The notes beneath the pieces were generated by a model. It did no database searches. It was not told where the DNA came from and saw only the letters and a program-made list of their open reading frames with translations. Source: a virus. From it: DNA of 64,000 bases. Numbering within the stretch: the first letter of the stretch is position 1; each line of letters opens with the position of its first letter. A program made the position numbers and the translations under genes. Positions 16,419-49,671 of this stretch are shown in pieces. The DNA lies in IMG/VR virus record IMGVR_UViG_3300025030_000060, positions 1 to 64,000 of that record. One strand, given 5' to 3'.

Positions 16419-16470
16419 AGAGGATCGGGGAGAGGATCGGGGAGAGGATCGGGGAGAGGATCGGGGAGAG
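16419..16470. repeat. 12-bp tandem repeat (AGAGGATCGGGG)x4.3 encoding (LSPI)4
   Basis: Four exact copies read directly. Confidence 0.95.
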
Positions 16471-16830
16471 GGCTGTTTTGTGCATCGTCACCGTCTGCCA
16501 TATTCCCTTCCGCCTTGCAGACTCTTCCGCCCTGACCCCAATGGCTTTAAATACCCCTATGCCGCCTTGCTCCTTGTAAATCTCACAGCACCACCGGACC
16601 AGCCTTGTGGGAGGTCCTGCCGACTTGTCCGCCATCATCCCCGGCAGGTTGCGCTTAGGTGCGCTCCATTTGGTGTCGGGATGGTGCCGCTTACCGAATA
16701 GAAGCAATTCGGGCGGGTCGATGGTGACGTTGTTGTAGTGGCACTGGTGCTTAACCCCTGCCATCTCGAATAACCTCACCATCACAGATGAATCTTTCCC
16801 GAATGAGTCACAGACATAGTACCCGTCAGG

Positions 16831-25842: not shown

Positions 25843-26847
25843 TTAATCGGTGAACATGGTCCCTTGCTGGCCCCCGGCGTCTTTCAGTTCCTGTGCCTTG
25901 ATTGCCTTCTGCTCGGAGATGGACGGAGCCCCTTCTTCGATGGTGAACTCCGTGCCGCAAAGGGAACAGATAGCCTCGCCTTCGGCAAGGTCTTCCATCG
26001 TGTCGAGGGGGTGCTTGCAGGTAGCGGGGTCTGCTGCGAAATTTGAGATAGATTCGCCTTCCTCCACTTTCGTTGCGCCTGCTGCCGGACCTGCCGCGCT
26101 CGGAACCTCGGCATCGTCGTCATCGAAGCCAGAGAGAATCTTACCGGCGCGGGCTACGCGGGTAGGCGTACCGTTCGCCCCGGTTCCTGGAGAAACGTCG
26201 ATGACGTCCATCATCTCTTCCGTAGACTGCATGCCAAAGGTGATGTCAGTGCAATGGACTTTGGAGAAGTAGGACGCTGCGCGGTACATGAACATCATCT
26301 CCGGCATCGTTTTCCACTTGCTCCCTTCCTTCTGTACCCAGCCCTCACCCTCCACCATGTCCCAGTCGATCCAAGGCCCGTACAACACCTTGCCGTCGCT
26401 CCGGCGCTTGGCGTAGGCCCGGACCCTATAGGTGCGATCCTTCGGGGCCTTCACCTTGGCGTCATAGGCAGGGTCGGTGCCCTTGATCTCGTATTCGAGG
26501 GGTTCCGCAAATCGCCCGGAGCTGTTCACCATGGCGGTGATGATCTTGGCCTCCAGCGTCGGCTTGCCATGAACCACGGCCATGTTCTGCATCAGGAAAA
26601 TGGGGCTGATCCCCATGTTGCCCGCCATTTCGAGGGCGATGAAGCAGTTCCCGGATTTCTGCTGGAACGCCTTGGGTACGATGTCGGATTTTGCAAACAT
26701 ATCCGCCACCTTGTAGAGCTGGTTCATCTTGTTAATGTCAAGGTAGAGTTCGAGACCTGCGGGTACTCCACCTGTCGGTATGGACATGATGGCCTTAGTC
26801 TCTGCCGCTCCCGGTGCGGCCTTGGCTGCTTCGTCTTTTTCCGGCAT
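25843..26847 (-). CDS. recT: RecT/Bet-like single-strand annealing protein
   Basis: SDIVPKAFQ..GNCFIA...MQNMAVVHGKP...SKWKTMPEMM..YRAA. Confidence 0.85.
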   Translation of the reverse strand: MPEKDEAAKAAPGAAETKAIMSIPTGGVPAGLELYLDINKMNQLYKVADMFAKSDIVPKAFQQKSGNCFIALEMAGNMGISPIFLMQNMAVVHGKPTLEAKIITAMVNSSGRFAEPLEYEIKGTDPAYDAKVKAPKDRTYRVRAYAKRRSDGKVLYGPWIDWDMVEGEGWVQKEGSKWKTMPEMMFMYRAASYFSKVHCTDITFGMQSTEEMMDVIDVSPGTGANGTPTRVARAGKILSGFDDDDAEVPSAAGPAAGATKVEEGESISNFAADPATCKHPLDTMEDLAEGEAICSLCGTEFTIEEGAPSISEQKAIKAQELKDAGGQQGTMFTD

Positions 26848-26874
26848 TGCACGACTCCTTTGAGGTTTGTTCTG

Positions 26875-27978
26875 TTACGCCGCCTTCTGTTGGTTGAAGC
26901 GCCACGGCGGGCAAATCGCCTCTTCGAGCAGGTCGAGGGCGGTTATCTGTGAAATGGGAACGGTATGGAGGGGAAGCTCATAAGCCGGGAAGTAGCCCAA
27001 CTCCTTGCACTCCGCGATCTGCATCAGTATACGCCGCGCCTCATCCTGAGAATCCCGGAGCCACTGGTTGCCCTCTGGCCCGCCGCCAAGGTAGACGGTC
27101 TTGACCGCGAAGGGGAAGGTATCCTCTACACCGATGAAGATGAAGGTGTTGACTGGCCGCCCGTTGGCCTCTACCCCGTTAGAATACATACCTCCTTGAA
27201 TATCATAATTCATGTTGCAAATCTGTCGGATGAAGGCGCTGCGCGTCGCCTCTACGGTCTTCTTGAGGTCCACCAGCGTGAAGCACTGTTCGTCGGGGAA
27301 GATGTCGGCCCTTGCTTTACACAGCAGACCGGAGTCCCTGTCGATCCAGACGATAGTGGTCTCGCGCATGCCCCGCGTGAGCAGCTTCTTGACGGTAGGG
27401 TGAGACTTCAGGGCGTTGTCGGCTCCCTTGATAGTCTCAGCCATAGGCGCTCCATTCCAAAAAGCAGGAAGTATAGTTTTGCCTTGGCAGTTCTCTTCAA
27501 ACTCGGACCACCACGCCATGGAGTCAACGGCATCTTGGCACGGGTTCTTAGCTGTGCGCTGGGTAGCGGTCGCCTTCTTCGGGGCGCTGGCCGGGGTGAT
27601 GGCGAATTCCTTGTTGAACGCATCACGCCCTTCGAGGCTGTAGGCGTGGATGGCGGAACCCACGTCCATGTTGTCCGTCACGACTACCGGCTTGCCCGCG
27701 ATGGCGGGGTACTTCATGAACTTCTTCATGTAGCTGGAAGAGATGTACTCCTTCATGAAACTGTGATAGTAGACGTTGGGGATGTCCGGGTAGATTCCGG
27801 GTCCCAGCAGGATCAGTTGCCCCTTCTCGTTGAAGGGGGGGAGACCAGTAGCCATGACGGCTAGGATTTCCGGGGTGATCTCGGCGGGGGTAAGGTAGAT
27901 AGCTTTAAGGGCCTCCGCTGTCGGGGAGACGTATATCTCGGTAGCTACCCCCTGAATGTCTGCAACCTTCTTCTGCAT
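26875..27978 (-). CDS. RecE/Exonuclease VIII-like PD-(D/E)XK nuclease (DUF3799)
   Basis: YYH...ISSS..K...GSAIH...CKARAD...LVDLKKT...YDIQ..MY. Confidence 0.85.
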   Translation of the reverse strand: MQKKVADIQGVATEIYVSPTAEALKAIYLTPAEITPEILAVMATGLPPFNEKGQLILLGPGIYPDIPNVYYHSFMKEYISSSYMKKFMKYPAIAGKPVVVTDNMDVGSAIHAYSLEGRDAFNKEFAITPASAPKKATATQRTAKNPCQDAVDSMAWWSEFEENCQGKTILPAFWNGAPMAETIKGADNALKSHPTVKKLLTRGMRETTIVWIDRDSGLLCKARADIFPDEQCFTLVDLKKTVEATRSAFIRQICNMNYDIQGGMYSNGVEANGRPVNTFIFIGVEDTFPFAVKTVYLGGGPEGNQWLRDSQDEARRILMQIAECKELGYFPAYELPLHTVPISQITALDLLEEAICPPWRFNQQKAA

Positions 27979-35461: not shown

Positions 35462-37156
35462 TTAACTGTAAAAGCTGTCGATGTAGCCCTGAATTGATCG
35501 CGCCGACTCCATCAAGGCTTCACCGCCACCACTTTTCTCCTTCTCCTTGGCGGCGGCTTCCTCGGTAGCCTTCTTGGCGGCGGCTTCGGCAAGCTTCTTT
35601 GGGAACATGATCTTGAACTTCGCTTCATCCACTTTCATGATGTCGGTGAACAGGAAGTTCTCGAAGGCGTTTTTGTCGACTCCCAGCCATTCCTGATCCA
35701 TCAGGCCCACGAGCTGCGCCATGCCGGTTGCGAGTTGGACGCGTCCCTCGCGGTTCTCCATCTCTTCGCGCTCCATGGCGGTCGAGACGCTGTTGAACAC
35801 GATGCGGTAGGGCTTCTCGCCGGGGAGGAATGCCTTCTTGAATTTGTAGGCGATATGGATGTCGCAAAGCTGTTCGACGCCCGTCTGTATGGCATGCCGC
35901 AGCATCTGCGCCTTCATGGCAGCCATGACAGAAACACGGAAGAACCCGCCATCGCCAAGCCCCCCGGAAAGGTTCTCGCCAAAACCCAGCAGGGAAGGGT
36001 CGACGCCCAAGGCCCCGCATAGACGGTTGATGTGAAAGGTGATGTCGTTGATCGCTTCGATGTTCGGCGTGCCCTCGATAGTCGAGATGTCCAGCCGCGC
36101 CCGTCCGTCGCCGAAAATGGGGATCAGGTGGTTGATGACGGTCTGGATGAACCCCTTCTTGAGGCTTCTTTTTGCGTTGGCGGTATCCACCCGCTGCATC
36201 TGGCCTGCGACGATGTTCAGATACTGTGCCGCCTTCTGGGGGGAGAGCTTGCCGGTGTTGATGCCGATCATGCGCTCCATCCGGGATGCGTTTTTCCTGG
36301 ACATGTTCAGGGAGAGGATCGCGTTGTTCAGGTCCATCCATGGCCCGTAGGATGTCTCCAACAGGCTCGTCCCGTAATTCTGGGATTCCGTGATGGAGTC
36401 GTCCTCGTAGTTGTCCACGGATAGGTCGAAGATCGAAGCGTCAACGCGGATAGGCTCCAGCAGGGACGGTTTCCACATGGGAATGCGGAACGGCACCATC
36501 TTCCACGGCTCCATAAGCTGAATGCCGCCCGTTTCCGGCTGTTGGTGCGCCGAGACGTAGCCCGCCACGCCCCCGGCCTGCTCGTACATATTGACGAATT
36601 GGGGGTGAGTGTAGTAGTCGGAACGGACCTGCTTGATTCCTACGCCGTCCTCACCGTAGACGCGGGCGAACCAGATGCCGTTGATCCCGGCGTTGTAGGC
36701 CCAGAACTGGCACTGGTCGTTGACTATTTTCTGAATGTTGTTGCGAAGGTCCAGGGTTATCGGGTCGGTTTCATCCCCGATACTCTCGATGGAGATGATC
36801 TCTCCGGTATCGGCCTTGGGGGAAAGCGCATGCGAGATATGCATCTTAATGGCTGAATCAATCGTCGGGTCCGTCGCCATGGTTCGGTAGACGTTGTAGC
36901 GGGCGAGGCGGGCCAAGGGAAGGTCTGTGATCTCCAGTTCGCCATCTTCGCCGGACTCGGAGACCCCGCCAAGTTGAGACCCATCTTCGGCGAAATTCTC
37001 ATAGATTGCGGAACCGGGAGGAAGTGCCAGCCCCCCCAAGTTCCTCGAATCAACCTGTTGGGAACTGGGGAAGAGCTGCTTCCAAAATGGCTTCTTCGAG
37101 TTTTTATCTTCGGATGCGGCCATATACACGGGCTCCATGGTATAGTTTCGCGCCAC
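35462..37156 (-). CDS. prt: Portal protein (P1 Prt-like)
   Basis: RYNVYRTMATDPTIDSA...DPSLLGF...GGLGDGGF; size and adjacency to pro. Confidence 0.8.
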   Translation of the reverse strand: MARNYTMEPVYMAASEDKNSKKPFWKQLFPSSQQVDSRNLGGLALPPGSAIYENFAEDGSQLGGVSESGEDGELEITDLPLARLARYNVYRTMATDPTIDSAIKMHISHALSPKADTGEIISIESIGDETDPITLDLRNNIQKIVNDQCQFWAYNAGINGIWFARVYGEDGVGIKQVRSDYYTHPQFVNMYEQAGGVAGYVSAHQQPETGGIQLMEPWKMVPFRIPMWKPSLLEPIRVDASIFDLSVDNYEDDSITESQNYGTSLLETSYGPWMDLNNAILSLNMSRKNASRMERMIGINTGKLSPQKAAQYLNIVAGQMQRVDTANAKRSLKKGFIQTVINHLIPIFGDGRARLDISTIEGTPNIEAINDITFHINRLCGALGVDPSLLGFGENLSGGLGDGGFFRVSVMAAMKAQMLRHAIQTGVEQLCDIHIAYKFKKAFLPGEKPYRIVFNSVSTAMEREEMENREGRVQLATGMAQLVGLMDQEWLGVDKNAFENFLFTDIMKVDEAKFKIMFPKKLAEAAAKKATEEAAAKEKEKSGGGEALMESARSIQGYIDSFYS

Positions 37157-37238: not shown

Positions 37239-37270
37239 AAAAGCGCCCCTTCTTGAGAAAGGACGCTTTT
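37239..37270. terminator. Intrinsic (bidirectional) terminator
   Basis: AAAAGCG...CGCTTTT hairpin. Confidence 0.7.
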
Positions 37271-37394
37271 GTTGTGATCTCGCCGCGCACCCCTTCGTTT
37301 GCAGGCTATTGCGCTAATCACTCTCGCCATTCGGCATTATCCAGTACGGCCCTGACGGCACTATTGCCGCTGCGGCTCCGGGGTATTTGGAGGG

Positions 37395-37424
37395 TATATA
37401 CACCTAAAGTGACATAACTGTCAA
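37395..37424 (-). promoter_or_regulatory. Candidate sigma70 promoter pointing away from the att site
   Basis: TTGACA-18-TATATA; TGACA-N4-TGTCA palindrome over -35. Confidence 0.45.
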
Positions 37425-37446: not shown

Positions 37447-37540
37447 ATTATCCCAACCAAACAGCTACAATCACTGAGCAATCCCGTTGATCGCCCTCGC
37501 GTGTTATGCCGCCGGTTGGCGAGATAATAACTAGTTAAAC
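37447..37540 (+). other. attI-like integron recombination site
   Basis: Core GTTAAAC (37534-40) preceded by AGATAAT and a 5-nt spacer; inverted repeat ATTATC-CCAACC / GGTTGG-CGA-GATAAT; core is complementary to the R'' of the first attC. Confidence 0.6.
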
Positions 37541-37546
37541 CGACCT

Positions 37547-37732
37547 TTATTCGTCTACCTTCGTCGGCTTCAGGGTTTCAGCTATATCCCGGAACCGCTG
37601 TAGTTCGCGCTGTACCGCCACCTTCGCCCTGTGCCCTAATTGGTTGCGTGGGTCGCTCAAGAGGTACGCAAGCTCGTTTGCCTCGTCCTTGAGCAAGACT
37701 ACTGCCTGATCAATTGCTTCCTTTCTGGTCAT
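37547..37732 (-). CDS. Cassette 1, distal gene (hypothetical)
   Basis: ATGA coupling at the conserved junction. Confidence 0.7.
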   Translation of the reverse strand: MTRKEAIDQAVVLLKDEANELAYLLSDPRNQLGHRAKVAVQRELQRFRDIAETLKPTKVDE

Positions 37733-37980
37733 GGCCGCACCGCCTCTGCCGCCTTATAGCCGTCGTTTCGACCCTGCCAGTAGTCGCTGTTTTCGTATTC
37801 TGCGACGAGCAACCGCAGTTCCTCATTTTCAGCCGTCAGCCGCTCCACCTCGTGGCTAAGATATGCAGTCCCGCCAGAGGGAGCATCCAGGTACGACCGC
37901 AGCCGCTCCACCTCGGTAATGATCGCCATGACTGTTGGAAAATCTCTGAATATAATCTTCTGTCTTTGCAAGTCCATCAT
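37729..37980 (-). CDS. Cassette 1, proximal gene (EVERL coiled-coil)
   Basis: GGAGG RBS next to the attC core; ends AEAVRP. Confidence 0.7.
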   Translation of the reverse strand: MMDLQRQKIIFRDFPTVMAIITEVERLRSYLDAPSGGTAYLSHEVERLTAENEELRLLVAEYENSDYWQGRNDGYKAAEAVRP

Positions 37981-37990
37981 CCCTCCCAGG

Positions 37991-38041
37991 GTTTAACCCC
38001 TCGCTCGTCCGCTGGCGCGGCCAGCTCGCAAACCGTTATCC
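37991..38041 (+). repeat. attC-like site 1 (51 bp)
   Basis: GTTTAAC-CCCTC-GCTCGTCC...GGCCAGC-TCGCAAACC-GTTATCC. Confidence 0.75.
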
Positions 38042-38557
38042 CTCGAACTCCGGGTTAAAATTCGGACAGGAAAAATCGCCGTGGGTCTGAACCGATCCTT
38101 TGCCACTACCAAACGTGATGTTTAGCCGGAACATTGGCACGGTGTCTTTCCCAAACTCACCGAAAAGGTCGATCATGCAAGTCCGATACTCGCCTGTCAG
38201 CTCTTTAACGTAGTGCATCCCCTGTGAACCCCAGGCTTTGCACTGCCGGCACTTGCCGGTTGCCTCTTCGAGGCCCTCACCGTTGAGGCAACGGGGGATC
38301 TCCGCGCCGATGGTATCCGGTACCCGCCCGCCGCCCTGATCCTCCTGGAAGCACATCACCCTCTCAACCAGCAGTTCGATACTCTTGATATGCTCCGGGT
38401 TAGCACCCAACTCAATGCATTTGTACTTATACGTTTGAAGGGCGGCAGGGACAGCAGCGTCCTTTGCGCAGAGCAGGAGCGAGTCGACCTCTGTGTACTT
38501 CTTGCCGTTCACCGGGTTAAAGGCATGAATCTGGAATTTGCGGTCAATTACGCTCAT
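38036..38557 (-). CDS. Cassette 2 gene (phage-type hypothetical)
   Basis: LLCAKDAAVPAAL..Y motif; TAA stop lies within the GTTA core. Confidence 0.8.
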   Translation of the reverse strand: MSVIDRKFQIHAFNPVNGKKYTEVDSLLLCAKDAAVPAALQTYKYKCIELGANPEHIKSIELLVERVMCFQEDQGGGRVPDTIGAEIPRCLNGEGLEEATGKCRQCKAWGSQGMHYVKELTGEYRTCMIDLFGEFGKDTVPMFRLNITFGSGKGSVQTHGDFSCPNFNPEFEG

Positions 38558-38583
38558 GAATTTTCTCCGTTTTATAGTGCCAG

Positions 38584-38632
38584 GGATAACCCGGCGCTGG
38601 TCCGCTGCGCGGGCAGCTTGGTTGCGTTAAAC
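38584..38632 (+). repeat. attC-like site 2 (49 bp)
   Basis: GGATAAC-CCGGC-GCTGGTCC...GGGCAGC-TTGGTTGC-GTTAAAC. Confidence 0.8.
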
Positions 38633-38899
38633 CAGAATGATTTCTCTTGCGTTAATGGAACAGTTATCGGATATCGGAGAAGTCCCATACCAGCGCAGGT
38701 ACCACTTACCGTTGACGCCCTTGGCTTTCCACATCTTCCCCTCGTAAACTCCCGATGGTATAGACGACGAATACTCGGCCAGAAAATTAAATGTCTTTTC
38801 GGACATCAGCGCGTGAGTGCCGTCAATCTCGATTGCAGACCGATGCGGTTGATTCCAGTACGCGCCCAGAGGGTCTGTCATTGCAGGTATCTCGCTCAT
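38627..38899 (-). CDS. Cassette 3, distal gene (conserved phage hypothetical)
   Basis: MTDPLGAYWNQP...YSSSIPSGVYEGKMWK; stop in core site. Confidence 0.8.
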   Translation of the reverse strand: MSEIPAMTDPLGAYWNQPHRSAIEIDGTHALMSEKTFNFLAEYSSSIPSGVYEGKMWKAKGVNGKWYLRWYGTSPISDNCSINAREIILV

Positions 38900-39177
38900 A
38901 GCCGCACCGCCTCTGCTTTAGCCATGTCCAGAAGTTCAATGAGCTTTTCGTCAGAGACATCGGCCTTTGCTGCCAAAACTGCAACTACGGCGTGCAGCGC
39001 ATCCCTCTGGACAGTGACCCGCTCCACCTCACCAGAGAGTGAGTTGACCATAGACCGTAACTCCCCGATCTCGCCTTTGAGATCATCACACGCGCCGTGA
39101 GGGCATACCTTCGGAAGCGCTGCCTCAGCCGTTGACCTACCTCTACCTTGATACATGTACCCTTTAGCGTCACCCAT
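38896..39177 (-). CDS. Cassette 3, proximal gene
   Basis: Ends AEAVRL at the conserved junction. Confidence 0.7.
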   Translation of the reverse strand: MGDAKGYMYQGRGRSTAEAALPKVCPHGACDDLKGEIGELRSMVNSLSGEVERVTVQRDALHAVVAVLAAKADVSDEKLIELLDMAKAEAVRL

Positions 39178-39194
39178 CTCTTCATCCCTCCAAA

Positions 39195-39282
39195 GTTTAA
39201 CCAGCAGGTCGAGGCGACCGAGCCGGTGGTAGTGAGCAGGAGTTGGCGAGAGTTCCCGCGCCTCACCTGCGGTCCGTTAAAC
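39195..39282 (+). repeat. attC-like site 3 (88 bp)
   Basis: GTTTAAC-CAGCA-GGT(C)GAGGCG(A)C...GCGCCTCACC-TGCGGTCC-GTTAAAC, with two extrahelical bases at the canonical positions. Confidence 0.9.
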
Positions 39283-39438
39283 CGGCTCCTGGAACCTTGC
39301 TTTTTTTGCAGTCTCTTTGACTACTTCAACGTCCCAAGAGGCACCATCTTCCCCAATTTTACGGATTGCATCCTCTTTCGATTCAGCCTCTATGCAGGCG
39401 GTCTCTTTTATCGTCCTGGTGACTTGATACCAGTTCAT
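39277..39438 (-). CDS. Cassette 4, distal gene (53 aa)
   Basis: MNWYQVTRTIKETACIEAESKEDA; stop in core site. Confidence 0.7.
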   Translation of the reverse strand: MNWYQVTRTIKETACIEAESKEDAIRKIGEDGASWDVEVVKETAKKARFQEPV

Positions 39439-39791
39439 AGCCGCACCGCCTCTGCCTTGCGAGCGTTTTGCATGGTGCTCGCGAAGCAACTGGCTGTCGC
39501 AGCCGTGTTTTCGTAGTGGGTTTGCATGGAGCGCAATGCCCTAGCCAGGGTGCCGTCTTCCGATGTCGAGTGCCACGGCGTTTTCTTGCCGTAGCCGGAG
39601 ATTTTCACTTCGTACTTGGCTTTGCCGTCCTTCTCCCTCCTCTCCACCTGGAGGGTCGAAAGCCTGTTGAATCCACTGCTCTGTATCCCGGTGGCGCGTA
39701 GGTACCCTTCGGGGTTGGACGACTTGTGCACCGTCCAATCGTAGCCGGGCATGATCTTGACCAGTTCTTTTCTGAAATCTGCTGGACTCAT
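39435..39791 (-). CDS. Cassette 4, proximal gene (conserved phage hypothetical)
   Basis: FRKELVKIMPGY.WTVH...ATGIQSSGFNRLSTL; ends AEAVRL. Confidence 0.8.
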   Translation of the reverse strand: MSPADFRKELVKIMPGYDWTVHKSSNPEGYLRATGIQSSGFNRLSTLQVERREKDGKAKYEVKISGYGKKTPWHSTSEDGTLARALRSMQTHYENTAATASCFASTMQNARKAEAVRL

Positions 39792-40555: not shown

Positions 40556-41710
40556 TCATTTTAACTCCTTCAGTTCCACAAGTACGCCATATGCTTCGTC
40601 ATGGTGCAACGTCCCGTAGGCGCTTTCGCTTACCTTTTCGATAAACCCGCACATGAGGGCGAAGGCTTTTTCAATCCGCTCCGCGTTCTGGAGTGCAGCC
40701 ATGAACAGTACCGCCAGGGCCTCGCTCTCGGCGTCCCCTTGCGGGCCAAAAGGGGCTACGAGCGCATGCGGGGTGAAGACTGCGACATGGGGTCCGGGAT
40801 AGGTCGAGCCAGAGAGCTTGCCGTGAATCTCCCCCTCCCATATGCCTACCCCCAGCAAACCACCCCCGAACTTTTCAGCCAGCATCTTCATGGCGTGGAC
40901 TGTCTGGATGACGTTCATGTCCTTAAGCGCGACGCAGTTCTCCGGGGGTGTATCCTCTTCAGCCATCAGTTTCACTGGGGGGGCAATGCGATCCCCCCTT
41001 CGGTTAAATGTGGCTCCAGGTTCCGCATCAAAATCGTGCTCTTCTTCGGCGCGACAACGGGCACACGTCGGGTTTTTGTCCCCGTTCGGGTCCTCATCCA
41101 TCACACTCAACTCATCTCCGCAACCAAGGCAAGGTGCAAGAGCCTCATAGACCTCCCGCGAGATATAGGAGTCTTCATCGACCAGGACCAACTTCTTCGT
41201 GTGGTGCCCGCCATGTTTAGGGTCTATCACGATGTTGTCGGCAGATGGCGCGTATTCAGGCGCGTGAAGTCCGTCGCAGCGATCCCCAGTAATGCAGCAG
41301 TCGGGGCCGCACTCGCTATGGTTCCCCGGTACAGGGGTCCCGGAGATATCAAGGGAGTGATGCACCCCAGCATGGCCGTAGCAGTCGCGCACGTAATCCG
41401 CGCCCTCCTTGGCGGTGATGTTCCCGTTACATCGCGAACAAAGCCCGTAGCCGGTATCCTGATTGAACCATTGCTTGAAGGCCGGGGCATCTTCCCCGCA
41501 GCAGGCGCAGTGCAGATGGAAGACGCGGCACTTGAGCGAAGACTCAAGGTACTTTGCCAGTTTCGCGCCCTGCTCGGTCCACTCCATGCCGAAGCCTACG
41601 ATACGGACCCACCCTATGGTGCAAGCGGCCACGAGAATTGCGGTATCCGTGGGGTTGTTGGGGAGGGTTCCAGTAGCCACCAGTTTTCTGACATCCACGA
41701 TGGTAATCAT
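40556..41710 (-). CDS. Mosaic Cys-rich hypothetical protein
   Basis: CACCG...QWFNQDTGYGLC motif; coupled ORF. Confidence 0.75.
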   Translation of the reverse strand: MITIVDVRKLVATGTLPNNPTDTAILVAACTIGWVRIVGFGMEWTEQGAKLAKYLESSLKCRVFHLHCACCGEDAPAFKQWFNQDTGYGLCSRCNGNITAKEGADYVRDCYGHAGVHHSLDISGTPVPGNHSECGPDCCITGDRCDGLHAPEYAPSADNIVIDPKHGGHHTKKLVLVDEDSYISREVYEALAPCLGCGDELSVMDEDPNGDKNPTCARCRAEEEHDFDAEPGATFNRRGDRIAPPVKLMAEEDTPPENCVALKDMNVIQTVHAMKMLAEKFGGGLLGVGIWEGEIHGKLSGSTYPGPHVAVFTPHALVAPFGPQGDAESEALAVLFMAALQNAERIEKAFALMCGFIEKVSESAYGTLHHDEAYGVLVELKELK

Positions 41711-42633
41711 GCCCTGTTCTCCTGCATCCTTTTGATGACTTCGGCAGCCCTGCCGTTCTGTTCCACGAGGTAGTCGTAGCATCCCATGTCAAAACTGCCG
41801 CCGTCGTCATCTTGGAACTCTCCATCTCCGACGTACTGGCAGATTAACCCGTCGCGGTCATCGTCATCGAAGCCGCAGTACCACTTGCCCACGGTCGGCT
41901 CCTTCAACTCAGGCTTATTGGTAGCGGGGTTGAGTATCGGGAACATGTGCGCCCCTTCCAGAACGGCCTTGTGAATGGCGGTGCCGATCTCCAAAGCGGT
42001 CTTGCTGGCCAGTTTGCGGCCTTCGCCAAGTGGCGAATAGCGGCACATGCCGATCTGCTCCGGCATTTCTCCGATGATCTCGATATCCCACCCGTCAGAG
42101 TTGCCGCGATTCCTCCTGTGTTGCAGTTCGAAGCCTCGGCGCTGCATGATGGCGTCCACGGCTGCCTCTATAGCCGCTTTCGCATCGGACTCGCTACCGT
42201 TGCCCAAAGCAAGGGTGACATTCTTCCATTCGTGCCGGTTCGGCTCGCTGTTCAGCCAACGGGTGTGAAACATATCGGCCACGGCTTCCATCGTCAGCGG
42301 CGATAAAACCCCTTTGGCATAGGCGCGGGCCTCTTCTACGTCCTGCTGCATCCCGGCGCTCATCCGGTGTCCGCCCTGCATCCTCATCAGTATCTCTCCG
42401 AGGTTGTAGTGGCAGTGTTCCGCAAGATACAGGTATACCAGTTGCTGACGAGCCTCGGCCCGAATCTCTTCCGGGGTGATGACGGCCATCTCCGCTTCCA
42501 GCAGACCCGCTTCGGAGCGGTTGCCCAAAATCACCATCGCTTGGCTCAGAATCAGGGCTCGGCTGTTGTCGAACCTAGCCGAAATCTCATTTGATACTGT
42601 GACTCGGATTCTTGAGTTCTCATATACTGGCAT
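41707..42633 (-). CDS. Hypothetical protein
   Basis: GGAGGT RBS; first gene after the operator-promoter. Confidence 0.75.
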   Translation of the reverse strand: MPVYENSRIRVTVSNEISARFDNSRALILSQAMVILGNRSEAGLLEAEMAVITPEEIRAEARQQLVYLYLAEHCHYNLGEILMRMQGGHRMSAGMQQDVEEARAYAKGVLSPLTMEAVADMFHTRWLNSEPNRHEWKNVTLALGNGSESDAKAAIEAAVDAIMQRRGFELQHRRNRGNSDGWDIEIIGEMPEQIGMCRYSPLGEGRKLASKTALEIGTAIHKAVLEGAHMFPILNPATNKPELKEPTVGKWYCGFDDDDRDGLICQYVGDGEFQDDDGGSFDMGCYDYLVEQNGRAAEVIKRMQENRA

Positions 42634-42700
42634 GTCTGTTACCTCCCTGGCGCTGGCCGCCACCCGCGTTGCGCCATCCAGGCGCTATGTCATGGCCCTA

Positions 42701-42740
42701 AATATACACTCTTTGGATTATGTGTCAAACAAATAATGCA
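42701..42740 (-). promoter_or_regulatory. Sigma70 promoter with operator (copy 2)
   Basis: TGCATTATTTGTTTGACACATAA; TTGACA-16-TATATT. Confidence 0.8.
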
Positions 42741-42797: not shown

Positions 42798-43202
42798 TTA
42801 TGGCTTCTTGACTGCCGCCCTCTGCTCCATGTCCTCGTCGTTGGAGAAGAACTTGATCGGGTCTTCGTCCGTATCAAGGACGTGCTGCGCCTCGTGCATG
42901 ATCCCCCGCCCTACCTGCGCGTCCTGATAGGCGAAGGCCGCCAGCAGGTCAAGGGTCTCGTCGCCATAGGTCATGGTCTCGGTCCACTCGTCTTCAATGG
43001 TCTGTCCAAAGGCAGCCTCATCACGTTTCAGGAATGCCGCCTTCACCAGCCACCACCACGGGCCAAAACTACGATAGCGCAGCGGGTCCTTGAGAAGAAC
43101 ACGCTTGACCACTGCGAGGAATCCTTCAGCCCACATGTCTCGGGCTTGGCCCGATTCGGCCAGCATGGCGTTCAATTCTTCGGCTTTCGGTTTATAGATC
43201 AT
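42798..43202 (-). CDS. ulx: Ulx-like protein (DarB incorporation factor)
   Basis: RVLLKDPLRYRSFGPWWWLVK resembles P1 Ulx as recalled; immediately downstream of darB as in P1. Confidence 0.7.
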   Translation of the reverse strand: MIYKPKAEELNAMLAESGQARDMWAEGFLAVVKRVLLKDPLRYRSFGPWWWLVKAAFLKRDEAAFGQTIEDEWTETMTYGDETLDLLAAFAYQDAQVGRGIMHEAQHVLDTDEDPIKFFSNDEDMEQRAAVKKP

Positions 43203-43223
43203 ATCTGCATCCCCCTTGTCGCA

Positions 43224-43260
43224 AATTTATCATTTTTTGTTTATCTGTCAAACAGATTAT
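43224..43260 (-). promoter_or_regulatory. Sigma70 promoter with operator (copy 3)
   Basis: ATAATCTGTTTGACAGATAA; TTGACA-16-TAAATT. Confidence 0.75.
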
Positions 43261-46200
43261 TACGCCATCAGTTTGTAGACCTCGGCAAGGTCGGTGGAAA
43301 TCGGAACATACCACCACGCCCCGTTGAAGTCGCCGCCCGTCTCGGAGAAGAACTGCGCGGTCCATCGGGTTTTCATCATTGGGCTCACTCTTCTCAGTAC
43401 CCCGTTGAATCCGTTCTTGTCCTGGAAGAACCAGCTCGTGAAGGGGGCATGGCTCTTTGCCGGACGCCCCTTATAGCCGGGGATGACCACGTTGGTGTTG
43501 TTGGTCTTGACGGTGATCCCCAAGGCGAGGAAAGCGGCTTTCACCTGTTCAGGGACTTCTTTGAAGTTGGGGTCGTTCCTGATGGCCTCCAGTGCTGCAC
43601 GTTCAGCCTCAGCCTTGGCCTGCGCCTCCTTGGCCCGTATATCCTCCTTGAGCCGGTTCAGGTACTGGTCGGCGATACGGGTAATCTCGCTCGTGTTATC
43701 GCCAAGGGCCTGTGCTGCCGTCTTAATCTCCCCGGCTGCCAAGTCCACGCTTCGCCCAACGACTACCCCGCCAAGGCTTACCTGCTTTTCCATAGCAGCC
43801 TTCCATGCCGTGGCGCATGCCGTCAATATCTCTACTTCAGTCGCCTTCCTGCCGTACTCGCTGGCTATAGCGTCGTAGCCGCTCCCGAATACCAGCCGCA
43901 TGACACTGTTGGCATCGTAAGCGCGGCCCGCCCGCTTCAGGCTTAGGTATGCCTCGCATACTTCTTTTTTCCACGTCTCGTTGTCCACATCGGGGTAATT
44001 CACAGTCAAGCCCGTCTGGGGCTTGCCGAACATCACCCCCTGCGCCCCTCTCAGCACGAAACCGTCGTAGCTGTAAAAACGGATTTTGTCGTAATGCTCG
44101 GTGAAGGTTTCCCTGTCGAGGTCGCCCCGGAGCAGGTCGGCATAGCGCCACTCCTGGCTGAGAAGTTTCTGGAGAGCCATTTCCTTTTCGGAGTAGGAGA
44201 CCTTGACCGGAGAGCGGTCGGCAATGAAGTCCTGCACGTCGTACCACTCATTGTCCGACTGTTTGGGTATAGAATTCCAGTTGAGCTGGCCCATCAAGGC
44301 GTCGGCCTTGAACCCCCTCGAAGCGGAGTTCACTTCGATGACCTTGATGACAATCGTACCGGAGTAGCTGTCCTTAAACTCATACATGTCGCCCACGGTG
44401 AGCACCACACCCTTGGGAGTCACCACACAGTTGCCGGGGTTGTCGATCAGCTTCTCATCAAAGGGAAGTTCCCCTTTCTGTGCCCTTACCCTCAGTTCAA
44501 GGGTGATCTTGTTGATGCGGGCCTGCACTTCGGCCTTTTTGTTGTTGTAGCGCGTGTCGAGGCTGTCCAGCTTCCATTGGGTCCTCTCCAGCGCGTCCTG
44601 TTTCTTCTGAATGGACTTGGAGATGTTTTTGCGCTCTTCGCTCCCCTCTTCCGTCCTCAAGCCCCGGTAGCGCAGATTCTCGATCTGCCTGTTCATGTCG
44701 GAGATGTCTTCGGCAAGATTGGTGCGCTCGGCCTCTTTTTCCTGCTCCAGTCTCGGCAGCACGGAAGCATTGGACGCCAGCACCTGGAGCTGGTTCACGA
44801 GTCGGGCCTTGGCCTGCGCCTTGGCCTTTTCCGCCTTCTTGGCTTCGGCTTCCATGTACTTCCGCTTGGCCTCTTCCGGGTTATCCTCGAACATGAACCG
44901 GATTTCGTCGGCGCTTGCAGCATTGGCGTTGGCTGCGGTCGCTGAGTCGGAGCGGAAGATGTCACCGATCCATCCCGCCTTCTTGCTTATCAGGTGCAGG
45001 CGGTAGGCGTCGAAGGAACCCTTGCCTTGATAGTAGTAAATCTTGATATTGTCGGCCTCGTTGCCTTGCCGGACTCCGCGCCCGTTGCGCTGCTGGATGC
45101 TGGAAGGGGTCCACGGGAAGGTCAGGTGATGGATTGCGCGGGTCCCCTTCTGTAGGTTGACGCCCACTTCGGCCTTCTGGTTGCAGATGACCATCGAGTA
45201 TTCCCCGGAGTTGTAGCGGTCGCTGATCCGCTGAAGCTCGGAACCCTTCGCCTCGTCGGCGTTGATGATGCCGATCTTGCCCCGGAGCATCGGCAGGTAG
45301 TGGGTAAGGATGCGCGCCACCTTTTGATGTTGGGCCTTTTCATCGCTGAAAATGATCTGCTTGCCGCCCAGTTCGTGGATCTTCTGCACCCTGTCCACCA
45401 TCAGTGCGTACTTCGGAGTCAGCGGGTGCCCCACGGTGCCCACGTCGAGTTTCACGTCCCGGAGCTTCTTGGCGTCCATCAGGAACGGCTCGAAGGCGTC
45501 GGCAAGGCGCACGATGAAGGCATCCCCCTTCATGCTGGTCTCCAGCGAATCCAAGAGGCGGTAAGTACGGTTTACCGGTTTCTGCGGTTCGCCCATTTCG
45601 GCCCGTTCAAGGTCATACTCCGGGTCGCCAACGCGGGGAGTAACCCGGACGGTGACTTCAGGCGGTATGATCTTCAAAAGCTGCGTTACCTTCCCCTGGT
45701 CCCCCTTTGCAAAGTGAAATGTCATTCTCCCGTGGAAGATGTCCGGGTCCATGGAAACCTGCTCCATGTCGCGGATGATGGAAAAGACGGGGCGGGGCTT
45801 GCCGCTGAATGTCGAACTGTCATCCTTGGTCGCGGCCTTGGCCTCTTCCCTCAGTTCGTCGTAGATATCCTGCTGCTCGTCGGTAAGGATGGCTTCCTCA
45901 TGGAATTCCTCACTGGGAGGAAGGTCGAGATTCACGTCCTTTGCCGTGCGAAGCAGGCAGTATTTGTGGAAGATGTTGCGGAGCCCGTCGAGGTTCTGGA
46001 AGCCAACAAGCCCTTCCGTCGCCTTGGTCTCGTTGGCGATGGTCATCTTGTCCACGATGTCCTTCTGTCCGAAAACCCGGATGAAGTCGTCGGGGGTGAA
46101 GACGCCGAACCGCTCGAATTCCTCCAGCGGCATGACGTAGGCCAGCATGTTGAAGATTTCCACCGGGGAGTTGGTGACGGGCGTCGCCGTGAGCCCGTAA

Positions 46201-49200
46201 GAGCCCCGGTCGTTGTTGTTTGCCCGGATGTGCCCCATTTTCATCTGCATGTCGAGCCCGCGCTGTGACGCCGGGGCGGTAGAGACGTAGGCAAGGCGGC
46301 TGGCCTCTTCGCCCGCCTCGAAGCTGTTCTTGTAGGAGTGGAATTCGTCTGTGATTACGTCGGTGAAACCCATGTCCTCAAAGTACGGCAGTTCCCCTTT
46401 TTTGGCCCCGGTGTCGGCAAATTTCCCCTCGGCGCGCTCTACCTGCTTGACCTCGTTGTAGTTCAGGGACTTCTCGTCGCCTACCTCGTCGTCCTTCCCC
46501 TCGGAGTTGGCTTTGATGGCCTGCTTAGAGAGCAGGCCGCGCTGGCTCCATTTGTCGATGAACCCCTGCTTCGTGTCAGGCCGGAGCGGGATGCTCTTGA
46601 ACTTCTCGTAGGTCATCACCACGAGTTTCACGTTGCTCTGCGGAATCTGCCACATGTCATCGTATACTTCCGTGGCGTCAAACTCCCCGGATGCAATCTT
46701 GTCCTGCCACATGGCCTCTTTGGTGTACTTGTTGATTTTCTGGTTCCCCTCCTCGTCAAGAACCGGCTCCTGAAGAATTGCCCCTTCCTTGGCGCGGTCA
46801 AAGCGCATCCCCACGAACAGGGCGTCGTCCATGCCCTCGTAGTAGTTCCGTGCCTCGTGGTACCAGTTGGAAAAGACCGCCTTGGGGACCACGATACAGG
46901 TCTTCTTGCTGCGCCCCATCTGGAGGTTGTACTTCACCAAAGCGAGCGTTTGCAAGGTTTTACCAAGCCCTACGTCGTCGGCGAGGATGCCGCGCCCTTC
47001 CTCGGAAAAACGCCGGATGGCCGCGTTCTGGTAGCCGTGCAGCACGATTTTCTTACTGACCCCCTGAAGCCCCAAGTCGGTCATCTCGTACTCCGGGGGA
47101 AGGAAAGCGTTGAACTTCATGTTGTACTGTTCCGCCAGTTCGTCAATGTTGGGCTGCTGCTGCATCCACATATTGAAGGTTTCGCGGAAGTTTTTGATGT
47201 TGTCGTAATACTGTTTTTTTAGGTCGCCGTCGTCGTCGCCCTTACCACCCCGGATGGCATTGCCGTTCATGTAGTTCTCGAACTGGAGGTCGAAGCCTGC
47301 GGGTTTCTTGCCCCCCAGAATGCGGAAGGAGCCGAAGGGATTCTCCGGGTCCTCCGTCCACTCCTTCGCGGTACGCATCTTGCCGGAGTAGGGATCTTCT
47401 TTTTGAACTTCCTGGTCGGAACCATAGGTGACGTTGGGGTAGCCGTTCTCCTTCAGGAAGTCCAGCACGTACTGCTTCGAGTACCACTTGTGGTTGAAGT
47501 CGAACATGATATCGGCAGGGTTCGTTCGCTTGCGCTTCCCGTCGATGATCCCGATCATCTGCATGTACTTCTGCTTGATCCGCTCGTCGGTCTCGTCGGC
47601 CATGGCGGCGTAGAGGGCCTGAAGTTTGGGGTAGATGTCGCCGGAGCAGTAGCGGGACATCGGGTAGATGATGCCGTCCGGGGAGATGGCTACGTTATCA
47701 AAGGCGGCGAGGTCGCCCAGTGTCGCCACCGGCATGCCCCCGGTGTAAAGCTTCTGCACGTCGTCAAGTTCGATGGTCTGAATGCCTTCCCGGATGAACA
47801 GGTGTTCCACGAGTGCCTGCACGTTGGTGGAATCGTATTGAAGATGCCGCCCCGATTCTTCCAGCGTCCCGTTCAGGAGGTCGGAGAAGTTCCCCTTTGC
47901 GTCGAGCGCATTGGAGAAAAGCCCGAACATCTTGGAAGACTCCCCGGTGAGCATGATGCCCCGGTTGTTCTTCGGGTGCCCGAAGCGGTCAATCTCGTTT
48001 GCCACAAGGTCCTGGAGTGCAAGCCGTTCGCTGTCATCCGCGTTGCCGTCGTTGAACCGATCCTGGTAGCGGGCAATCATGCCACCGATGATGGAGCCCC
48101 TGTAGAGCTGTTCCGCTAGTTCTTCCTTGGGCTGGCTCATGGCGAACTCAATAGCCGCACTGGCAAGGGCCGGTAGAAGGTCGGGATAGGTCTTGAAAAT
48201 GGCGAAAAGCTGGTAGACGGTGAAGGAAAGGCACCCCTTGGGAGAGCCAAGGCGGGCCTTCAGCTCTTCGATGCTGGATGCGCCGTACTTGGCTGGGTCA
48301 ATCGCTTCTTTGGCATCCACGGAGGCGACACGGACCCATGCGCCATGCTGCATCTCACACTCGATGCCGTTTATCATCTTGCGGTCGCCGTCCACGTAAT
48401 TGCGCGTAACAGGTTCCGCCACGGAGAGCGCGGCCCAGTCGATCCGGGAGACGAACTTTGAGGCCAGCTTCGCCTTCAGGCCCGCGTCGTCAACGTCGCC
48501 GTCCACGGCTTCCCGGCTGAACCTGTCGCCTGCAATCTTCGGGACCCACTTGCCCATGATGAAGGGCCGCCCCTCGCCCAGCCAGTAGCGCCCCGCTATG
48601 AACTCGTCAAAGATGACGTTGGTGCTTATCAGGGTCTCGAAGGTGAGGTCGTTCACGACGTCCAGAAGGCTTTGCGGGTGCTTGCGAAAGACAACCACGT
48701 CAACGACGGTATCGGTGCCCTGCGCTGCGAAGGTTTTGGAGGGGAGCTTGTGAGCGCCAAGGAACTCGGCCTTGCGGGAAACGGAGTTGCGCCACTTGGC
48801 CCAGTCGGTCGAGCCCTTGGCCCCCACGATGTCGGTCGGCACGATCAGGACGGCGAGCCCCCCAGGCTTGATCTTGTCCAGAATCCGGGAGATGAAGTAC
48901 CGCTGAATCTTCCCCTCGTTCTTGTAGGGCGGGTCGTCGAACTTGTAGGCCCCACGGGCGTCGCCGAAGGGCACGTTGGTGCAGCAGCCGTCGAAGGAGT
49001 TGTCCGGGGTGTCGGAGCAGAACTTCTCGAAGCTCTTGTTGGTGATGGAGTCGCCCGCGTTGAGAAGCTGCGCCACCTTCGAGGCGGTCGGGTCGAGGTC
49101 GCAGCCGGTGATGACGATGCCCCCCGGTTTTGTCGCCGAAAACATGCCGTGGCCGGTGCTGGGGTCCAGGATGTTGCCATTGGCTAGGCCGTTGGCAACA

Positions 49201-49577
49201 AGGCCACTCCAGACGCCTTCAGCGACGTGCTGAGGGGTGTAGTATTCGTACTGGGAGTTGTCGGAGAGCCCCCCCTTGCCGGAATACTGCTTCAGGGTCG
49301 CCCTTTCCTCTTCGGTGAGGTCTCCGGGGTTGTTGACGCGGGAAAGGATCTCCTTGGCCGCTTTGTTCAGCTTCTCACGGGCCTTCTTGCCGCGAACCAG
49401 TAGCCCGTAGTCGCTGTTCTCGTTCTTGTAGTCGTTGGGGTCCTTCGGCGGGTCCTGTCCGGGGATGCTGATCTTGAAGAGGGTTGCGAAGACCTTGGCA
49501 AAATCAAGGAATGATGTGGCTTGCGAAATACTGAGTTTCGCAAAACCAAGGGCGGTAGTACCGGGGTTGACTCGCAT
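43260..49577 (-). CDS. darB: DarB-like antirestriction protein: N6-adenine methyltransferase plus SF2/SNF2 helicase
   Basis: LKQYSGKGG...YEYYTP, ILDPSTGHG, TNVPFG, DVGLGKT, DEFH, TATPVTN, QRNGRGVRQGN; AAGGAG RBS favours ATG 49577 over 49628. Confidence 0.92.
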   Translation of the reverse strand: MRVNPGTTALGFAKLSISQATSFLDFAKVFATLFKISIPGQDPPKDPNDYKNENSDYGLLVRGKKAREKLNKAAKEILSRVNNPGDLTEEERATLKQYSGKGGLSDNSQYEYYTPQHVAEGVWSGLVANGLANGNILDPSTGHGMFSATKPGGIVITGCDLDPTASKVAQLLNAGDSITNKSFEKFCSDTPDNSFDGCCTNVPFGDARGAYKFDDPPYKNEGKIQRYFISRILDKIKPGGLAVLIVPTDIVGAKGSTDWAKWRNSVSRKAEFLGAHKLPSKTFAAQGTDTVVDVVVFRKHPQSLLDVVNDLTFETLISTNVIFDEFIAGRYWLGEGRPFIMGKWVPKIAGDRFSREAVDGDVDDAGLKAKLASKFVSRIDWAALSVAEPVTRNYVDGDRKMINGIECEMQHGAWVRVASVDAKEAIDPAKYGASSIEELKARLGSPKGCLSFTVYQLFAIFKTYPDLLPALASAAIEFAMSQPKEELAEQLYRGSIIGGMIARYQDRFNDGNADDSERLALQDLVANEIDRFGHPKNNRGIMLTGESSKMFGLFSNALDAKGNFSDLLNGTLEESGRHLQYDSTNVQALVEHLFIREGIQTIELDDVQKLYTGGMPVATLGDLAAFDNVAISPDGIIYPMSRYCSGDIYPKLQALYAAMADETDERIKQKYMQMIGIIDGKRKRTNPADIMFDFNHKWYSKQYVLDFLKENGYPNVTYGSDQEVQKEDPYSGKMRTAKEWTEDPENPFGSFRILGGKKPAGFDLQFENYMNGNAIRGGKGDDDGDLKKQYYDNIKNFRETFNMWMQQQPNIDELAEQYNMKFNAFLPPEYEMTDLGLQGVSKKIVLHGYQNAAIRRFSEEGRGILADDVGLGKTLQTLALVKYNLQMGRSKKTCIVVPKAVFSNWYHEARNYYEGMDDALFVGMRFDRAKEGAILQEPVLDEEGNQKINKYTKEAMWQDKIASGEFDATEVYDDMWQIPQSNVKLVVMTYEKFKSIPLRPDTKQGFIDKWSQRGLLSKQAIKANSEGKDDEVGDEKSLNYNEVKQVERAEGKFADTGAKKGELPYFEDMGFTDVITDEFHSYKNSFEAGEEASRLAYVSTAPASQRGLDMQMKMGHIRANNNDRGSYGLTATPVTNSPVEIFNMLAYVMPLEEFERFGVFTPDDFIRVFGQKDIVDKMTIANETKATEGLVGFQNLDGLRNIFHKYCLLRTAKDVNLDLPPSEEFHEEAILTDEQQDIYDELREEAKAATKDDSSTFSGKPRPVFSIIRDMEQVSMDPDIFHGRMTFHFAKGDQGKVTQLLKIIPPEVTVRVTPRVGDPEYDLERAEMGEPQKPVNRTYRLLDSLETSMKGDAFIVRLADAFEPFLMDAKKLRDVKLDVGTVGHPLTPKYALMVDRVQKIHELGGKQIIFSDEKAQHQKVARILTHYLPMLRGKIGIINADEAKGSELQRISDRYNSGEYSMVICNQKAEVGVNLQKGTRAIHHLTFPWTPSSIQQRNGRGVRQGNEADNIKIYYYQGKGSFDAYRLHLISKKAGWIGDIFRSDSATAANANAASADEIRFMFEDNPEEAKRKYMEAEAKKAEKAKAQAKARLVNQLQVLASNASVLPRLEQEKEAERTNLAEDISDMNRQIENLRYRGLRTEEGSEERKNISKSIQKKQDALERTQWKLDSLDTRYNNKKAEVQARINKITLELRVRAQKGELPFDEKLIDNPGNCVVTPKGVVLTVGDMYEFKDSYSGTIVIKVIEVNSASRGFKADALMGQLNWNSIPKQSDNEWYDVQDFIADRSPVKVSYSEKEMALQKLLSQEWRYADLLRGDLDRETFTEHYDKIRFYSYDGFVLRGAQGVMFGKPQTGLTVNYPDVDNETWKKEVCEAYLSLKRAGRAYDANSVMRLVFGSGYDAIASEYGRKATEVEILTACATAWKAAMEKQVSLGGVVVGRSVDLAAGEIKTAAQALGDNTSEITRIADQYLNRLKEDIRAKEAQAKAEAERAALEAIRNDPNFKEVPEQVKAAFLALGITVKTNNTNVVIPGYKGRPAKSHAPFTSWFFQDKNGFNGVLRRVSPMMKTRWTAQFFSETGGDFNGAWWYVPISTDLAEVYKLMA

Positions 49578-49671
49578 GGATGCTCCTTGAAGGGGAGTTA
49601 AAAAAACATTCGCGGCGGCATTTGACATATAATGCCGCCGCGAAGTCCATGCTTATTACTGTTTGCTCAGG

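Follow-up and report, generated by a model that had tools for sequence, protein, structure and literature searches.

The stretch analysed here, hereafter the window, comprises 64,000 nucleotides (positions 1 to 64,000) of the IMG/VR virus record IMGVR_UViG_3300025030_000060 (record G000), which belongs to a large phage with a DarB-like giant gene (43260-49628), a portal gene (35462-37156) and a ParB-like gene. A 2.7-kb island of small genes lies between the DarB-like module on one side and the portal gene on the other, and within it are three pairs of genes, A1-B1, A2-B2 and A3-B3, whose members are joined in each case by the same short sequence, which we call the linker (Table 1). The minus-strand 21-mer GCAGAGGCGGTGCGGCYATGA, that is GCAGAGGCGGTGCGGC(C/T)ATGA with a pyrimidine (Y) at position 17, has three exact matches, in agreement with the initial annotation, which had reported three near-identical gene-gene junctions; none of 100 dinucleotide-preserving shuffles contained a match with two or fewer mismatches, and a fourth copy was not found in the entire 96,554-base viral record. 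Each copy supplies the six last codons and the stop codon of the upstream open reading frame (ORF), ending it in AEAVRP or AEAVRL and TGA, and carries a ribosome-binding-site-like GAGG as well as the ATG of the downstream ORF, which overlaps the upstream TGA (ATGA) at all three junctions; the reading frames bear out this anatomy as it had been proposed. The flanking genes had been described as otherwise different, and indeed when the three sites are aligned on the motif there is no likeness outside it, the flanks being unalignable. The length of 21 nt needs some revision, since the 21-mer is exact within the window but the conserved core is 18 nt long (GAGGCGGTGCGGCCATGA); GCA usually precedes it and is often the native last alanine codon of the upstream gene, as it is in the A3 family. 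The edges of the linker are ragged, and in a subset of copies it is flanked 5′ by GCNCTG and 3′ by GCGA. The linker thus holds in one piece a Shine-Dalgarno-like GAGG, a fixed spacer (GGTGCGGCC, between GAGG and ATGA) and the two overlapping codons at which gene A stops and gene B starts, and gene B of the two-gene cassettes has no ribosome-binding site of its own. No promoter-like or terminator-like sites are present at the linkers, and there is no Rfam match in the segment 36900-40700.

The genes of the island are separated by short structured elements that begin at or in a stop codon, with (G)GTTTAAC or GCCTAAC and GATAAC variants, and end with GGTTAAAC, after which come a GGAGG-type ribosome-binding site and the next start codon; no such hairpin elements are found elsewhere in the phage. 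The long type has relatives in four other records; in its fold an asymmetric internal loop lies between an outer stem of 7 bp and an inner stem of 12 bp, the latter with a single bulged G, and in the consensus fold six of the 21 pairs have compensatory changes across five records. The two stems, the bulged G and the compensatory changes together are the architecture of an integron attC site, for which we looked for paired R boxes (RYYYAAC...GTTRRRY), an imperfect inner stem with an extrahelical base and a variable loop; the long type has all of these features, and the short types were judged by eye alone.

A second line of evidence comes from another IMG/VR record, G007, which holds locus L010 and one exact copy of the linker. 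It encodes an integron integrase (TIGR02249, 362.5 bits against a cut-off of 265), and a cassette of the form A-linker-B adjoins the integrase gene directly: the stop codon of B is followed by GGTTTAAC/TAGTACTTATC...CGGCGGGATATCAC, a ribosome-binding site and the intI start codon, which lies about 50 nt past the cassette. This interval of approximately 50 nt that separates intI from the last cassette recurs in the window, where it follows B1 (37490-37541), and at the end of the island at locus L007. The R box in G007 is complementary to six bases at the other end of the same cassette and not of the neighbouring cassette, as in integrons (pairs read from the sequence are TTAAAC...GTTTAAC for the linker cassette and TTAGGC...GCCTAAC for the next). 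Since the attC architecture coincides with an attI-like sequence whose counterpart in G007 neighbours intI, the phage island appears to be part of an integron platform that lacks the integrase. A search of G000 gave no Phage_integrase match, and so no tyrosine recombinase, with the caveat that an empty family search is not proof of absence: six-frame Pfam searches of the phage for RecT, YqaJ and ERF were also empty, and these must be false negatives because PHROGs identifies a RecT-like gene together with an exonuclease VIII (ExoVIII)-like gene at 25843-27978, in keeping with the phage RecET pair named in the initial annotation. A Geobacter metagenome-assembled genome (MAG; G001) was considered as the source, but no similar attI or cassettes adjoin its integron integrase, which lends that genome no support. 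The cassette genes all face the attI/intI end, the opposite of the usual orientation, and the same is true of locus L406 (record G007, 12933-16600, minus strand), a complete small integron with intI, an attI-like sequence and at least three to four cassettes, whose ORFs all face intI and which IMG/VR classes as a provirus. Many second genes, both in the window (38627-39438) and at the family loci, end in valine and a stop codon derived from the R-box sequence GTT TAA, so that the cassette boundary provides their last codon and stop.

The linker is not confined to this phage. The exact 21-mer, with any base allowed at position 17, is found at eight sites in seven other IMG/VR contigs, and further copies, at least those listed here, come from contigs of metagenomes and from a pair of contigs assigned by binning to a Geobacter MAG, this binning being the basis on which Geobacter is taken as the candidate host. 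Degenerate scans of the databases return mostly chance matches and ordinary operon junctions, and only copies in a cassette context with two or fewer mismatches to the 18-nt core were therefore counted, giving a list of 27 distinct sites that is a lower bound (at least 27). The frame GAG GCG GTG CGG CNA TGA is kept in all 27 and the stop/start overlap in 26, as expected of the standardised stop/start coupling junction that had been suggested. The check that had been proposed, whether the motif is confined to attC-bounded units, also comes out in favour: the rest of the phage contains no copies, and at 21 of the 26 listed sites with a stop/start overlap the second gene finishes in or beside the next R box. 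Every multi-gene cassette that could be followed by a simple parser uses the linker as its junction, and the ordinary ATGA junctions of the phage backbone (G000) all differ from it. Linker-bearing records contain one to three copies in a single orientation; they apparently derive from a few related samples and include an integron and several unrelated phages, and the carrier phage backbones have no detectable protein in common with this phage in the stretches that were fetched. No recombinase is shared across the linker-bearing records, and none was found in several others besides G000. The linker is thus real and more than a product of chance, and is a standard intra-cassette linker in a phage-borne integron family.

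The exact 21-mer also occurs at ordinary operon junctions in unrelated bacteria (L222, L206, L209 and L296); in Blastomonas, for example, a C-N hydrolase gene is joined by it to a small gene for a zinc-ribbon-like protein. These copies look like convergent AEAVR-stop/ATG junctions and are the background expected for a GC-rich 20-mer in several hundred gigabases, and they show that such a sequence is able to serve in coupling. At loci L405 and L404 (IMG/VR 3300044673_000155 and 3300050029_000117), which are those of more distant phages, there are TAAC...GTTA hairpins around a gene of the coiled-coil family described below, without a linker, so that the hairpin-cassette system is wider than the linker.

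The degree of conservation of the linker is unusual for its setting. Its core is 95-100 % identical among copies, compared with a mean of 69 % for the long attC-like hairpins in the same records, and the other start region of the cassettes (GGTTAAACC...GGAGG), unlike the linker, varies freely. Near-perfect identity of this kind, tighter than in the attC-like hairpins, requires a constraint additional to that on an ordinary ribosome-binding site, and identity-dependent recombination or a sequence-specific host factor could be its source. Selection seems to act on the nucleotides of the linker and not on the peptide, judging from the pattern of variants. When the databases were scanned with all synonymous variants of AEAVR, the matches consisted of exact and one-mismatch copies of the family and a bulk of chance matches with three to five mismatches, and no cloud of synonymous linker relatives was found. 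Variants at the cassette loci are as often non-synonymous, including E>K (L289), A>P (L399), R>Q together with P>S (L343) and the alternation of P, L and R at position 17, as synonymous, of which there are two (GTT in L030 and CGT in L033) among the 27 listed sites. Three copies have GTT, GAA or ACA in place of the leading GCA (A>V, A>E or A>T), and in two read-through copies (L371) the AEAVRP peptide is internal to longer proteins. Among the 27 listed sites a T at position 17 is present only in window copies 2 and 3; by a rough count that assumes random placement over 27 sites, the chance that both T variants fall in one record is about 3 %, which suggests copying within the genome.

The genes on either side of the linker can be found separately from it and from each other. 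A3 has 14 relatives in other viral contigs that lack the linker and end near ...NARKA-stop, and the A3 relative at L007 is about 65-70 % identical at the DNA level up to its linker, beyond whose ATGA the sequence is unrelated and a different second gene follows. Twelve relatives of B2 (phrog_24427) in other phages have quite different sequences upstream, and at L310 and L336 related second genes stand behind unrelated first genes. Most of the upstream genes are unrelated to one another, and six or seven of the 27 listed belong to a single coiled-coil family (GESGSN[FY]PQDGRM) in which the likeness extends some codons further upstream (ALAEAVRP); its outgroup members in phages end ...AKAAL plus two or three residues (EI or KTK) and lack the linker. 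The expectation that partner genes should occur in other combinations, or free of the linker, is therefore borne out by A3, B2 and the coiled-coil relatives as well as by L007 and the pair L310 and L336. The objection foreseen at the outset, that the upstream ORFs might simply be paralogs with a conserved C-terminus, applies to the six or seven coiled-coil genes and fails for the rest, most of which are unrelated, and the outgroup members of the family have no such tail. The ragged edges of the linker are what would be expected if joints had formed at slightly different points.

At L343 a degenerate linker (GCAGAGGCGGgtgataATGAGTCGGTTTAAC) abuts an R box with no second gene, and a 13-codon mini-ORF lies between a degenerate copy with two mismatches and a perfect copy, so that a single cassette (minus strand, approximately 1880-2200 of the reversed locus) displays three linker states: degenerate and fused to the R box, two-mismatch and perfect. 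In the L371 variant ATTA replaces ATGA and is followed by a remnant of 10 codons. The degenerate L343 copy without a second gene, the L371 variant and the mini-ORF arrangement of L343 all look as though they arose by deletion at the linker. Where gene B is missing the linker is degenerate or read through, and the linker is in this sense tied to gene B. From these comparisons the linker is most simply regarded as a module boundary.

We think it somewhat probable, from the sequence comparisons described above, that the linker is a standard translational-coupling leader for the second gene and that it also serves as the break-and-join point of the cassette halves. In a two-gene integron cassette it lies inside the 3′ end of the first gene, where it would allow ribosomes completing gene A to restart on gene B, a coupling that its anatomy predicts. 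It is the only sequence that the cassettes share internally, so that second genes would be gained, lost and exchanged there, with 18-27 common bases at the place where the halves join. Exchange over short homologies is plausible in this phage in view of its RecT-like and ExoVIII-like pair, but the linker is also found in other, unrelated backbones and adjoining an integron integrase; the recombination genes of the phage are therefore not the whole story, and the linker is better seen as a property of the cassette family. Several points weigh against this interpretation. GAGG and ATG are 10 nt apart, which makes a weak site; 18 invariant bases are more than an ordinary ribosome-binding site needs; and the interpretation does not account for the way in which each new gene came by the linker precisely at its stop or start codon. 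The evidence for exchange consists of distant relatives (62 % and 32 % amino-acid identity) and not of near-identical genes with swapped partners, and 21-27 bp lies at the lower limit for homologous recombination. A wider proposal, which we put forward tentatively and regard as possible without being likely, is that the linker, the hairpin-side start region and the R-box stop make up a small set of standard parts belonging to a cassette-building or -rebuilding system, in which the linker would act as an identity-dependent joint that plugs independently evolved genes together and swaps halves, both in chromosomal integrons and in phages.

Other explanations emphasize one or another of these properties. 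The linker might be a dedicated recombination site, for a site-specific enzyme or for a RecET- or RecA-type exchange that needs identity, its coding and coupling features being merely the price of its location. Its stricter conservation than that of the attC-like sites, the presence of break points at both of its edges, the rare variant common to two neighbouring copies and the deletion derivatives with ends at the linker would all be accounted for in this way, and candidate enzymes can be named in the RecT-like and ExoVIII-like pair of the phage and the integron integrase that adjoins a linker cassette in G007. We nevertheless consider this unlikely, since the linker has no dyad symmetry, no GTT core like those of attC and attI and no likeness to the hairpins; no recombinase is common to the records that bear it, and no tyrosine recombinase was found in G000. 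Recombination also has no need for the fixed frame and the ATGA overlap (26 of the 27 listed sites), nor would it explain why copies decay where gene B is absent. To much the same degree we doubt that the linker is the site of a sequence-specific regulator, either an RNA-binding translational repressor or small RNA that switches all of the second genes, or a DNA operator similar to the stoperators of cluster A mycobacteriophages. Such a site would explain the 18 invariant bases, which include a spacer that is normally variable, and the constant position at a start codon in one orientation, and the analogous start-associated sequences are likewise suspected of binding a factor (PMC3203893). However, the phage encodes no complementary RNA beyond chance expectation, there is no pairing with 16S rRNA past GAGG, and the 12-mer is not enriched in the candidate host genome; moreover, the carrier backbones share no detectable protein with this phage in the stretches that were fetched, so that any such regulator would need to be the host's.

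The standardization of the cassettes could instead be a mark of the way in which they are made, the linker, the hairpin-side start region and the R-box stop being parts added by a templated process. Unrelated families appear to be plugged in at their native ends (the ...NARKA-stop of the A3 kin and the ...AKAAL plus two or three residues of the coiled-coil kin), second genes very often end in the R-box GTT TAA, and all two-gene cassettes have the same linker. This process is nonetheless improbable in our view, because the variable hairpin-side start region means that the parts are unequally standardized, the ragged linker edges fit repeated recombination at least as well, and no candidate machinery was seen. 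Least probable of all, and largely refuted, is that the linker merely encodes AEAVRP as a conserved C-terminal peptide of paralogous proteins. The coiled-coil family with its six or seven upstream genes ending ...ALAEAVRP lends some colour to this idea, as do the internal stretches at L371 (ALAEAAQP, and AEAVRP followed by further residues), but most upstream genes are unrelated, outgroup members of two families have no such tail and one copy lies behind a 13-codon mini-ORF. Furthermore, the last residue varies (P, L or R) while the third positions of the other five codons are almost fixed (two synonymous variants in 27), and the changes are not biased towards synonymous ones.

A number of more specific candidates were examined and rejected. 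A collapsed attC remnant was dismissed when the extended linker was compared with 24 hairpin regions, for which the best local alignment scored 9 against a shuffled mean of 10.2. For extended pairing with 16S rRNA the longest complementary run was 9, where shuffled sequences gave a median of 10, and GAGG is the sole part that pairs with the anti-Shine-Dalgarno tail; for an antisense or small RNA encoded in the phage nothing rose above chance. A Chi-like over-represented host motif was set aside because the candidate host MAG has 10 occurrences of GGCGGTGCGGCC and 9 of the reversed control. A sigma-54 promoter needs a TGG that is missing in most copies, and its start as predicted by eye would fall inside gene B, and a frameshift or read-through fusion of A and B is at odds with the lack of a slippery sequence. 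The idea that the linker is the native end of the coiled-coil family is unsupported, its outgroup ending ...AKAAL(EI/KTK)-stop. A type II toxin-antitoxin pair as the content of the two-gene cassettes was rejected on the grounds that none of A1-A3 or B1-B3 has a Pfam family.

Of the known systems two come closest to the linker, the start-associated sequences found in cluster K mycobacteriophages and the PeSL motifs found in T4-type phages. Start-associated sequences (SAS/ESAS) were described by Pope et al. (2011; PMC3203893) and their function is still unknown (PMC12699233); the SAS is a 13-nt sequence, GGGATAGGAGCCC, with some 7-20 copies distributed over half a genome in one cluster of phages (PMC3203893). 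Like these, the linker is a short, asymmetric and nearly invariant motif that lies in a single orientation at the start codons of unrelated non-structural genes; both have a Shine-Dalgarno-like core together with conserved bases that are unable to pair with rRNA, and the SAS sometimes overlaps an upstream stop codon. The ESAS subset follows an imperfect inverted repeat, much as the first genes here follow a hairpin. The linker differs in the length of its core (18 nt) and in its sequence, as a match test against GGGATAGGAGCCC confirmed, and in being always inside the upstream reading frame and only between two genes of a cassette. It is also common to seemingly unrelated backbones and an integron, and there are only three copies in this phage, all of them within the 2-kb island. 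The PeSL motifs (Arbiol et al., 2010; PMC2839356) are promoter/stem-loop motifs that flank small accessory genes in variable regions and act as patches of homology for shuffling, deletion and gene replacement, the shuffling having been demonstrated with mini-circles (PMC2839356), whereas shuffling at the linker is deduced from sequence relationships. They are intergenic units of promoter and terminator, and the linker is much shorter, lies in coding sequence and has no sigma-70 promoter, terminator or hairpin.

Among integrons, fused cassettes such as blaGES-1/aacA4 contain two genes with no attC between them, the second of which is thought to be translated by coupling (PMC8876359). These are individual accidents that retain an attC remnant, whereas the linker is one junction for many unrelated gene pairs and has no likeness to the hairpins. 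Clusters of attC sites without an integrase (CALIN) have been found in phage genomes (Qi et al., 2023; PMC9892861), and the island resembles them as a phage-borne attC-like array in a phage without integrase; it differs in that no conserved internal junction is reported there (PMC9892861) and in that the cassette genes here all face the attI/intI end. The linker is thus not a member of the start-associated, PeSL or fused-cassette families, and it would seem to work like the first and possibly like the second.

The coordinates of the linkers, their flanking genes and the other elements of the island are given in Table 1. No Pfam family was found for any of A1-A3 or B1-B3, so that toxin or antitoxin domains are not recognised among them, and a PHROG could be assigned only to B2 (phrog_24427, of unknown function).

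Table 1. Linkers, flanking genes, attC- and attI-like elements and recombination genes in the window
Feature	Position	Strand	Basis or remark
Linker copy 1 (GCAGAGGCGGTGCGGCCATGA; C at position 17)	37729..37749	-	A1/B1 junction; exact match and reading frames
Linker copy 2 (T at position 17)	38896..38916	-	A2/B2 junction; exact match and reading frames
Linker copy 3 (T at position 17)	39435..39455	-	A3/B3 junction; exact match and reading frames
A1, 83 aa, coiled-coil 'EVERL' family, C-terminus AEAVRP	37729..37980	-	Weak phrog_4029/722 matches
B1, 61 aa, orphan, last gene ahead of attI-like sequence	37547..37732	-	ORF; family searches
A2, 93 aa, distant relative in coiled-coil family of A1, C-terminus AEAVRL	38896..39177	-	ORF and family comparison
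B2, 90 aa, phrog_24427	38627..38899	-	Relatives in other phages without linker
A3, 118 aa	39435..39791	-	14 linker-free relatives in other viral contigs; L007 relative with linker
B3, 53 aa, orphan	39277..39438	-	Stop codon within GGTTTAAC
attC-like hairpin, long type, 88 nt, between B3 and A2	39195..39282	-	21 pairs, 6 compensatory, one bulged G
Short attC-like element ahead of A3, then GGTTAAACCCTGGGAGG and start codon	39807..39854	-	Read by eye
Short attC-like element between B2 and single-gene cassette X (38036-38557)	38587..38632	-	Read by eye
Short attC-like element between X and A1	37991..38040	-	Read by eye
attI-like sequence after last cassette, GGTTTAAC/TAGTTATTATC...CGGCGGCATAAC	37490..37541	-	Same sequence in G007
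RecT-like annealing protein	25843-26847	-	phrog_561, E 2.9e-63
Exonuclease VIII-like protein	26875-27978	-	phrog_412, E 2.3e-44

Some signals for transcription are recognizable around the island. On its portal-gene side (37239-37400, minus strand) there is a near-consensus promoter, TTGACA-N18-TATATA, at about 37390-37419 (judged by eye), followed some 130 nt further on by a strong terminator with a 14-bp stem (37239-37270) and a T run. There is no convincing ORF between promoter and terminator, and this unit between the attI-like sequence and the portal gene may specify a small RNA, one without an Rfam match. Beyond the other end of the island, two promoter regions (42700-42737 and 43223-43260) are related to each other, with 74 % identity along 38 nt, and both contain TTGACA and a good -10 box; they precede the genes at 41707-42663 and 42798-43202, and transcripts that enter the cassette island could arise from them.

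How integron cassettes are made and remodelled, and how phages shuffle accessory genes without breaking their expression, are long-standing open questions, and the linker touches on both, being kept more strictly than the recombination sites around it and joining genes that are found separately elsewhere. If it acts only in coupling translation, it would be a portable expression adaptor comparable to the start-associated sequences of mycobacteriophages. If the halves of cassettes do exchange at the linker, it would represent a second and finer level of modularity within integron cassettes, and would provide a concrete case of the old 'linker' model of phage mosaicism.

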